Shown: positions 35,333-35,851, counted from the first letter of the stretch. The stretch is 64,000 nt of DNA from Pseudomonadales bacterium (GCA_965199705.1 OZ241359.1:1183584-1247583), one strand, 5' to 3'. Numbers and translations are program-made. The notes: a model not told the origin generated them from the sequence alone.

Positions 35333-35851
35333 ATGACCATGATCTTGCTCGACCCCACAGACGAACGCCAGCCGGCGCCCAGGCGCCTGGCCCCGCGCAG
35401 CGGCGCCTTGCGCGGCAATCTGGCCTTTCTCGACATCTCCAAACCGAAGGGCAATCTGTTGATCGACCGGCTGGCCGAGCTGCTGGCGGAGCGGGCGCCG
35501 GAACTGCGGGTGCAGCGCTATGCCAAGCCCACCTTCGCCAAGCCGGCGCCGGCAGCGTTGCGTGAGGAGATCGCCGCCAACAACGACTTCGTGGTCGAGG
35601 CGCTGGCGGACTGAGGCTCCTGTACCACGTGCAGTTTGCATGACACGGTATGGTTCGAGCTTCAGGGCAAGCCGACGGTCGCCATTGCCTCTGACGCCTT
35701 TGTGGATGCGGCGGCCACCCAGGCCGAGGCGCTCGGTATGCAGGAAGCCGCCTGCGTGTTCGTTGCGCATCCCATTCAGGACGCGACGCAAGCGGAAATG
35801 CGTGCTCGCGCGGACACGGTTCTGGAACAACTGATTGACGCCTTGACATGA
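35333..35851 (+). CDS. UGSC-motif selenoprotein (172 aa; Sec at codon 94 encoded by TGA 35612-35614)
   Basis: Track ORFs 35333..35614 and 35636..35851 are in the same frame. They are separated only by the TGA plus 7 sense codons. The second piece has no ATG or RBS. Read-through gives ...[27 protein letters not shown] (35319-35323) precedes ATG 35333. A SECIS-like hairpin follows the TGA. Confidence 0.7.
35615..35661 (+). promoter_or_regulatory. candidate bacterial SECIS hairpin
   Basis: Numbering the U of UGA as +1: upper stem C17-G31/G18-U30/U19-A29/G20-C28/C21-G27, with G23-U24 in the apical loop. Lower stems are 12-15/36-39 and 4-8/46-50. The local GUGCAGUUUGCAU resembles E. coli fdhF UUGCAGGUCUGCA, where G23/U24 occupy the same positions. 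Confidence 0.5.

Follow-up and report, generated by a model that had tools for sequence, protein, structure and literature searches.

Positions 35333 to 35851 of the window (the whole stretch of 64,000 nucleotides from a Pseudomonadales bacterium that was analysed here) most probably form one gene, which has a product of 172 residues belonging to the known UGSC family and in which an internal UGA would be read as selenocysteine (Sec) by means of a conserved stem-loop located 3' of it. We put the probability of this reading at roughly 0.9. It is carried by the conservation of the UGA and of the codons on both sides of it, by the conservation of the stem-loop itself, and by the Cys residue that occupies the same position in distant homologues. 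Additionally, the gene is accompanied by an upstream partner gene that could bear on what the UGSC protein does.

One reading frame divided by an in-frame UGA

Two ORFs, 35333..35614 and 35636..35851, are called at this position, and the first-pass annotation proposed that they are the two parts of a single selenoprotein gene. The observations on which it relied hold when read again in the sequence. The ORFs lie in a single frame, their starts being 303 nt apart (35636-35333 = 303 = 3x101), and what separates them is the TGA at 35612-35614 followed by seven sense codons (GGC TCC TGT ACC ACG TGC AGT). The first ORF has AGGAG (35319-35323) 9 nt ahead of its ATG at 35333, whereas the second begins at TTG, ahead of which a purine-rich Shine-Dalgarno sequence is missing. 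Translation through the TGA yields, as had been stated, a product of 172 aa with Sec at residue 94, in which the motif reads ALAD-U-GSC or, in numbered form, U94-G-S-C97-T-T-C100. The features of the gene are as follows.

35333..35851, + strand: UGSC-family selenoprotein gene, complete; 172 codons including the proposed Sec94, plus the terminal TGA at 35849-35851, all in one frame
35319..35323, + strand: Shine-Dalgarno sequence AGGAG, 9 nt before ATG 35333, read directly in the sequence
35612..35614, + strand: UGA, the proposed Sec codon (U94); kept as TGA in orthologous loci, Cys in distant homologues
35621..35632, + strand: codons C97 (35621-35623) to C100 (35630-35632), which complete the U-x-x-C-x-x-C motif
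35849..35851, + strand: terminal UGA of the UGSC gene, overlapping the ATG of nadA (ATGA)

Because ORF finders take every TGA as a stop, the gene is split into pieces of 93 and 71 aa. The same splitting of ORFs at the TGA accounts for the thousands of UGSC fragments of 92-94 residues in public protein collections: public gene calls mostly list the halves apart, with thousands of 92-94-aa entries that end in EALAD and others of ~72 aa. The 93-aa ORF was found, identical, on seven independent contigs, so the TGA is not a sequencing error. The second, terminal UGA lies 237 nt 3' of the proposed Sec UGA, and no SECIS-like structure is present there. The window was also screened for other in-frame TGAs flanked on either side by coding signal, which yielded three sites and no further selenoprotein candidate: at two of them the translation is antisense-like nonsense, and the third is an ordinary gene end with the next gene in the same frame.

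Membership of the UGSC family

Profile searches with the read-through product, made with Cys in place of U, gave 156.8 bits against the NCBIfam model NF041046, "UGSC family (seleno)protein" (curated cutoff 125; aa 30-172), and 155.9 bits against the Pfam model PF24696, "UGSC" (cutoff 25; aa 5-172). The family name given in the first-pass annotation thus exists, as NF041046, with the product scoring above its curated cutoff; the match spans both halves, as befits a full-length member of the curated family. Judged by its sequence, the window product is a member of the known UGSC family and differs from it in nothing essential. The gene is accordingly a catalogued family combined with a well-known annotation artefact, and as such is already known rather than new.

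The UGSC-containing protein has been in the literature since 2007-2008, having first been noted in Hyphomonas neptunium (ABI76733.1) and in ocean metagenomes (PMC1976440, PMC2398784). The GOS survey counted 255 Sec forms and 21 Cys forms (PMC2398784), and UGSC is among the most abundant selenoprotein families of ocean metagenomes (PMC2398784, PMC13188914). A 2026 review lists the family as still uncharacterised (PMC13188914). In these sources UGSC is called a selenoprotein of unknown function, and no experiment on selenium incorporation is reported for any of its members (PMC1976440, PMC13188914).

Conservation of the UGA and of both halves of the gene

A scan of one genome per species identified at least 591 genomes with a UGSC relative, from which the 80 best loci were fetched. 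These belong to MAGs of Pseudomonadales or other Gammaproteobacteria, including Candidatus Azophilus, and their proteins are 61-73% identical. Codon 94 is TGA in 80/80 of these orthologous loci and TAA, TAG or a sense codon in none of them, the ten residues after the TGA are conserved, and tblastn matches cross the junction of the two ORFs in the 80 genomes. The orthologues are therefore in line with the single gene proposed earlier, both in keeping the TGA without exception and in conserving the two halves. Among divergent loci that keep the module (UGSC and its upstream partner, see below), the codon is likewise TGA in 7/7 (5 distinct sequences). An eighth divergent locus, L089, looks decayed, having an internal deletion and CGA at the site.

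When 1.84 billion representative proteins were searched exhaustively, 860 clusters were returned. In the 34 full-length distant representatives both halves are present, and the column aligned to the TGA, i.e., to residue 94, is Cys in 31; of the remaining three, one has Ser, and in the other two a TGA codon has been mistranslated as G or W. The Cys forms of the family read D-C-G-S/A/G-C at the motif. The second Cys of U/C-x-x-C, C97, is invariant across the family, whereas the third Cys, C100, is conserved in the window clade and not in distant members.

UGA also acts as an ordinary terminator in these organisms, ending 39/81 UGSC genes and 47/80 partner genes and, within the window, the acyl-CoA dehydrogenase gene at 32729. 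Because UGA ends these genes, the UGSC gene of the window among them, it is not reassigned genome-wide. Collectively, the comparative sequence data strongly support a single gene in which UGA94 is recoded.

A conserved SECIS-like stem-loop

The minimum free energy (MFE) fold of +1..+64, counted from the first nucleotide of the UGA, is a 53-nt hairpin of -24.1 kcal/mol that consists of the pairs 1-8/46-53, 9-15/36-42 and 17-22/26-31 and of the loop G23 U24 U25. Its folding energy alone is not significant (z = -1.9; 10/200 shuffles fold as well); the significance of the hairpin stems from conservation, not from thermodynamics. Its parts are as follows.

35620..35653, + strand: putative conserved SECIS core, +9..+42; helix 9-15/36-42, internal loop and helix 17-22/26-31; -10.7 kcal/mol
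35628..35642, + strand: upper SECIS stem-loop; 6-bp stem CGUGCA/UGCAUG with apical loop G23 U24 U25 (35634-35636), invariant in 81 sequences
35612..35664, + strand: extended hairpin including the UGA; adds the basal helix 1-8/46-53 of the MFE structure, largely specific to this genome

Over 69 distinct sequences, 100% of cells are paired in helix 17-22/26-31 and 97.5% in helix 9-15/36-42. The basal helix that contains the UGA is 80% paired in relatives, G5.A49 being mismatched in 68/69 distinct relatives, and because of this poor pairing the conserved SECIS is placed at +9..+42. The long 3' hairpin of the first-pass annotation is thus present and conserved in its upper two-thirds, but its basal part is largely specific to this genome.

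In the orthologous loci the core of the hairpin is retained and the synonymous sites that overlap it are nearly frozen. Codons 96-107 (+7..+42) have a normalised codon entropy of 0.146 versus 0.82 in the rest of the gene (81 sequences; Mann-Whitney p = 3.7e-8); the strongest constraint on any 11 consecutive codons of the UGSC gene lies here. Thr99 is encoded by ACG in 80/81 sequences, with one relative having Ser (TCG) instead, Cys100 by TGC in 81/81 and Ser101 by AGT in 81/81. AGT is found at ~7% of other Ser positions, and at Ser101 it supplies G23 and U24 of the loop. Covariation offers thin support because the element is almost invariant, double changes being scarce (3 pairs and 10 cells). 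In distant members the stem is kept with G18-C30 replacing G18-U30, and in the divergent locus L095 it is lengthened to 8 bp.

Rfam gave no SECIS or other family, either for the whole window at gathering thresholds or for 35500-35760 at E <= 10. The published bSECIS consensus (PMC13188914, Fig. 2A) describes a loop of 3-9 nt with G in the first two loop positions, an upper stem of 4-16 bp, an MFE <= -7.5 kcal/mol and a UGA-to-loop distance of 16-37 nt. Every one of these properties is found here, with a 3-nt loop (GUU) that presents G23-U24, a 6-bp stem, -10.7 kcal/mol and a spacing of 19 nt, so that the fold agrees with the bacterial SECIS that had been suspected. Sequence conservation and folding together strongly support a conserved SECIS-like stem-loop that overlaps codons 96-107.

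Selenocysteine machinery and alternative readings of the locus

tRNA-Sec was found neither in the 64-kb window nor in 60 related loci, and tblastn with E. coli SelA, SelB and SelD detected no selA, selB or selD in the window and 80 related loci (~0.9 Mb); for a genome of at least 3 Mb, a negative result that covers 64 kb of it and ~0.9 Mb at related loci carries little weight. In one relative, L090, the genes follow one another as selA - selB - partner - UGSC, and the module is therefore tied to the Sec machinery in at least one lineage.

The TGA could be a genuine stop, with the 71-aa ORF being a separate gene translated alone from TTG 35636. The halves are indeed separate in the output of ORF finders and in most public gene calls, and codon 102 is ATG or GTG in some distant members, which would suit a start at this position. 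However, the TTG of the window has no Shine-Dalgarno sequence, and the GSCTTCS stretch between TGA and TTG, which holds the invariant Cys97, is kept as amino acids in 81/81 sequences. Cys-form homologues and fusion proteins run unbroken over the junction and a single curated HMM covers both halves. Moreover, the internal stop is TGA only, never TAA or TAG, whereas the terminal stop varies freely. Two independently translated genes are thus extremely unlikely. Even less credit can be given to a nonsense mutation in a former Cys codon (TGC/TGT), whether in a pseudogene or through a sequencing or assembly error. Such an event, if recent, would give one in-frame stop, and decay of the kind seen in L089 (CGA at the site, internal deletion) does occur among the relatives, but the same TGA is present in the genomes of 80 species and on 7 independent contigs of the source organism, the downstream half is still under amino-acid conservation, and the synonymous sites after the TGA are extra constrained, not relaxed. 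A pseudogene is refuted by these conservation data, and its probability is negligible.

It could also be argued that the UGA is recoded with an amino acid other than Sec, by reassignment to Trp or Gly or by SECIS-independent near-cognate read-through with Cys or Trp. W or G indeed appears at this position in a few database translations (P0002, P0141, P0001), which come from callers using other genetic codes, and the Sec machinery was not found within the 64-kb window of this genome. Nevertheless, UGA ends many genes here, which speaks against a genome-wide reassignment, and the conserved hairpin, the loop G-U and the bSECIS spacing make up a specific signature of SelB-dependent decoding. The adjacency of selA-selB to the module in L090 and the Sec/Cys pairing among homologues, which fits Sec, point in the same direction, and recoding as another amino acid is consequently very unlikely. 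Decoding of UGA94 as Sec within one gene is the reading adopted in what follows.

Predicted fold of the UGSC protein

The fold was approached through an AlphaFold model of a homologue (P0001) that is 62% identical to the window protein; this model, of moderate confidence (pLDDT 76, pTM 0.73), is built of repeated beta-alpha units. In Foldseek it matched flavodoxin-like proteins best (lumazine synthase, receiver domains, PTS-IIB), though weakly (TM 0.4-0.56), and there is no thioredoxin in the top 50. U94/C97 are located between strand 85-89 and helix 97-109 of the model, with the x-x spacing at the N-terminus of the helix. The analogy with a thioredoxin-type CxxC, drawn in the first-pass annotation, therefore stands at the level of the motif but does not extend to the predicted fold, which is flavodoxin-like and not thioredoxin-like. 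For UGSC, a likely Trx-like fold has also been proposed in the literature (PMC2398784), which is not supported here because Foldseek returned flavodoxin-like matches and no thioredoxin in its top 50. The flavodoxin-like alpha/beta fold predicted by the model, as opposed to a thioredoxin-like one, is new here. PDB sequence searches with the UGSC protein and its profile gave one spurious coiled-coil match, to a designed "protein origami".

A partner gene upstream of UGSC

UGSC is preceded by a gene for a 536-aa protein in 80/80 loci and is elsewhere fused to the unannotated core of that protein, an association that is new here. In the window, the partner has the following features.

33650..35260, + strand: partner gene, 536 aa; co-directional, 72 nt upstream of UGSC
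33662..34054, + strand: N-terminal TlpA/ResA-like thioredoxin-fold domain of the partner; CPTC at aa 38-41 (33761-33772)
34178..35245, + strand: core domain of the partner, aa 177-532; invariant C252 (34403-34405) and C350 (34697-34699)

The partner is located directly upstream of UGSC and on the same strand in all of the 80 loci, with 55-72% identity; the other neighbours in the window are not syntenic (hydrolase 0/80, nadA 1/80, peptidase 0/80). UGSC and partner overlap or are separated by a short spacer (median 36 nt), and no promoter- or terminator-like sites were found in 33300-37000, a region that spans both genes. A partner homologue is also upstream in the divergent loci L090-L096, sometimes without the N-terminal domain, and P0334, P0336, P0391 and P0393 are single polypeptides that join the partner core to a UGSC domain of the Cys form. 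In this regard, a fusion named "UGSC/Unknown_1" is mentioned in the GOS paper of 2008 (PMC2398784), and its "Unknown_1" may be the same domain as the partner core.

At least 7,940 entries in the databases belong to the partner family; they are named only "TlpA/redoxin" after their first ~120 residues, and the family has no domain model. Foldseek relates the N-terminus to SdbA, StoA, ResA and CcmG (TM 0.7-0.8, normalised to target length), the profile match to ResA has E = 2e-7, and the CPTC is invariant in 40 sequences. PDB sequence searches with the partner and its profile gave thioredoxin-domain matches to the N-terminus and nothing else. Likewise, when the whole partner model was submitted to Foldseek, the thioredoxin domain took all 50 matches listed, with none for the core. 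The core has no Pfam, NCBIfam or PDB sequence relative, including in searches made with Trx-less and fused partners. The motifs GWSDGLPxxPPT, NAVMAGC, RxNxxIGRA and GxPxKxxxC are invariant in the core, distant and fused members included; C252 sits in NAVMAGC and C350 in GxPxKxxxC.

Proposed mechanism and implications

During Sec insertion in bacteria, the loop of the SECIS is bound by SelB.GTP.Sec-tRNA(Sec), which brings Sec to the UGA. By analogy with E. coli fdhF, the stem-loop +9..+42 of the UGSC mRNA would serve as a bacterial SECIS during translation, presenting G23 and U24 in its apical loop, and this loop would recruit SelB.GTP.Sec-tRNA(Sec) so that the UGA at 35612-35614 is read as Sec. 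The terminal UGA, which has no SECIS-like structure, would then end the protein. The motif and the structural model suggest that Sec94 and Cys97 could form a redox pair that cycles between selenol/thiol and selenenylsulfide.

On the basis of gene context, UGSC most likely works as a catalytic selenol subunit together with the protein encoded upstream. The two would make up a two-part cytoplasmic reductase, in which the partner core (C252, C350) would hold the substrate or share in catalysis and the TlpA-like CPTC domain of the partner would re-reduce the selenenylsulfide. A broader proposal, which we offer as tentative and consider rather doubtful, is that UGSC and its neighbour represent a two-component reductase that has escaped recognition so far and that occurs in presumably aerobic bacteria of marine and soil habitats; its Se subunit would be related to the Sec domain of GrdB/PrdB, and its ~350-residue partner core would be an uncharacterised catalytic or substrate-binding domain, re-reduced by the TlpA-like domain. 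If true, this would provide a concrete, testable hypothesis on the function of a selenoprotein family that, among the orphan ones, ranks with the most abundant in the ocean.

In itself, the locus chiefly serves as confirmation that selenoprotein genes are broken up by standard ORF calling. Of wider value are the additional results: the partner gene may explain the function of UGSC, and its strict linkage and occasional fusion to UGSC, the non-thioredoxin predicted fold and the consistent but weak similarity to the presumed Sec region of selenoprotein B turn the "unknown function" of UGSC into something testable.

Comparison with known systems

The window protein has the U-G-S-C motif in common with the UGSC family, and its gene shares with the rest of the family a systematic truncation at the TGA in databases.

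Another system to be compared is selenoprotein B (GrdB/GrdF/GrdH/PrdB) of the reductases for glycine, sarcosine, betaine and D-proline, since half of the UGSC members tested match its presumed Sec region in register, a weak sequence similarity that is new here. TIGR01917 (glycine reductase selenoprotein B) is matched weakly by 17 of the 34 UGSC members (best E = 2.6e-5), and weak matches were likewise obtained to GrdF (10 members), TIGR01918 (8) and GrdH (5); every unrelated family was matched by exactly one of the 34. The selenoprotein B matches are colinear, aligning UGSC aa ~75-165 with profile positions ~325-407, and in all 24 hit/model combinations, all of them weak matches, the Cys/Sec column of UGSC falls at profile positions 346-351. 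The Sec of GrdB lies, presumably, near residue 350. GrdB carries a UxxCxxC motif (PMC13188914), which is also found in the window protein (U-G-S-C-T-T-C), although the third Cys is not conserved UGSC-wide. In contrast, the selenoprotein B cutoffs are not reached, the best member scoring 23.3 versus 602 bits for TIGR01917 and 18.6 versus 65.45 for TIGR01918, and the window protein itself has no match to TIGR01917 or TIGR01918 at E <= 5. Selenoprotein B is ~430 aa long and UGSC ~172 aa. Selenoprotein B is encoded with grdA/grdE or prdA, whereas the neighbours of UGSC are the 536-aa partner, a hydrolase, nadA and a peptidase; near UGSC there are no grdA, grdE, prdA or other Stickland-reductase genes. 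The hosts differ as well: those of the window type are Pseudomonadales MAGs, and hosts of this kind are presumably aerobes, unlike the anaerobic carriers of Grd/Prd. The similarity is a lead towards a remote relationship of the Sec domain and does not amount to membership of the selenoprotein B family.

The N-terminus of the partner has the thioredoxin fold and the CPxC active site in common with the TlpA/ResA/CcmG thiol-disulfide reductases. Unlike these, it (MALPVQELSPCLL...) has no signal peptide or membrane anchor, judged by eye, it continues into a ~350-aa core without known family, and it is dispensable in some lineages.

Finally, the stem-loop can be compared with the SECIS of E. coli fdhF, the sequence of which was verified in >5400 E. 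coli genomes. The fdhF loop has 4 nt (GGUC) and the UGSC loop 3 nt (GUU). Below the upper stem, which begins 13 nt after the UGA in UGSC and 11 nt after it in fdhF, UGSC has an asymmetric internal loop (A16 / A32-C35) whereas fdhF has a bulged U17. In both cases, however, a stem-loop within the coding sequence lies directly 3' of the UGA, with UGCA in its 5' strand and a basal helix able to include the UGA. Both also have UGCA at +26..+29 and G23 and U24 in the loop, and the earlier observation that this G-U lies at the same distance from the UGA in UGSC as in fdhF proved exact.

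The partner gene and its core domain

The UGSC selenoprotein gene is preceded by a gene whose product combines an N-terminal TlpA/ResA-like thioredoxin domain with a large core:

33650-35260, + strand: partner gene, 536 aa, directly 5' of UGSC
34178-35245, + strand: partner core, ~350 residues (aa 177-532)

This synteny is found at 80/80 related loci (L007-L086) as well as at the divergent loci L090-L096, and in some organisms the partner and the UGSC domain are fused into a single polypeptide (P0334, P0336, P0391, P0393). When the related loci were compared, no conservation of the other window neighbours was found. 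At least 7,940 database entries belong to the partner family, and they are named only as TlpA/redoxin proteins after the N-terminal domain. No relatives of the core were found in Pfam, NCBIfam or PDB; its invariant motifs are GWSDGLPxxPPT, NAVMAGC (C252), RxNxxIGRA and GxPxKxxxC (C350).

Divergent loci

A metagenomic relative (L090:1-4549) shows the gene order selA (fragment)-selB-35-aa ORF-partner (529 aa)-UGSC, and thus places the module directly behind genes of the Sec-insertion machinery. In the distant variant at L094:3800-4354, the motif reads U-G-S-C-T-S-G-S, and the change that removes the third Cys also creates a G.A mismatch in the upper stem of the SECIS; the partner there has 361 aa and lacks the thioredoxin domain. 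The Methylomirabilia copy (L089:4001-4417), named 'UGSC family (seleno)protein' by NCBI, carries CGA (Arg) where TGA is expected, has lost ~40 internal residues and is without a partner; this gene appears to be in decay. At L092:4003-4449, the gene directly 3' of UGSC codes for methionine sulfoxide reductase B (PF01641, SelR), which might hint at a setting of oxidative repair.

Gene boundaries, UGA context and database entries

Three further sites in the window concern reading and boundaries:

32729-32743, + strand: end of an acyl-CoA dehydrogenase-like gene (TGA 32729), then an alpha/beta hydrolase gene
35609-35611: codon 93, GAC (Asp), immediately 5' of the UGA
35848-35851: overlap (ATGA) of the UGSC stop and nadA start

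Codon 93 is also constrained, Asp being encoded by GAC in 76 of 79 sequences and by GAT in three. Possible reasons are that Sec insertion needs a certain sequence context or that the codon pairs in the basal helix. The ATGA overlap suggests translational coupling of UGSC and nadA in the window; since nadA follows UGSC in only 1/80 relatives, this arrangement is local. TGA 32729 resembles a read-through candidate, the hydrolase starting 12 nt past it in the same frame, and was rejected as an ordinary boundary between the two genes.

Public UGSC gene calls are almost all 92-94-aa fragments with the C-terminus EALAD (protein database matches including P0144-P0253). The few full-length entries (P0001, P0002, P0141) have G or W in place of Sec, apparently because genetic code 25 or 4 was applied in gene calling.

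Likeness to selenoprotein B

Three papers that cover the UGSC family (PMC2398784, PMC1976440, PMC13188914) make no mention of a homology to selenoprotein B of glycine/sarcosine/betaine/proline reductase. In the alignment of diverse UGSC members (A8; window 35580-35830, + strand), 17 of the 34 give weak, colinear matches to this protein, and the region matched is its Sec-containing one. The window UGSC protein and selenoprotein B also have the UxxCxxC motif in common. Together, the matches and the motif suggest remote homology between UGSC and the Sec region of selenoprotein B.
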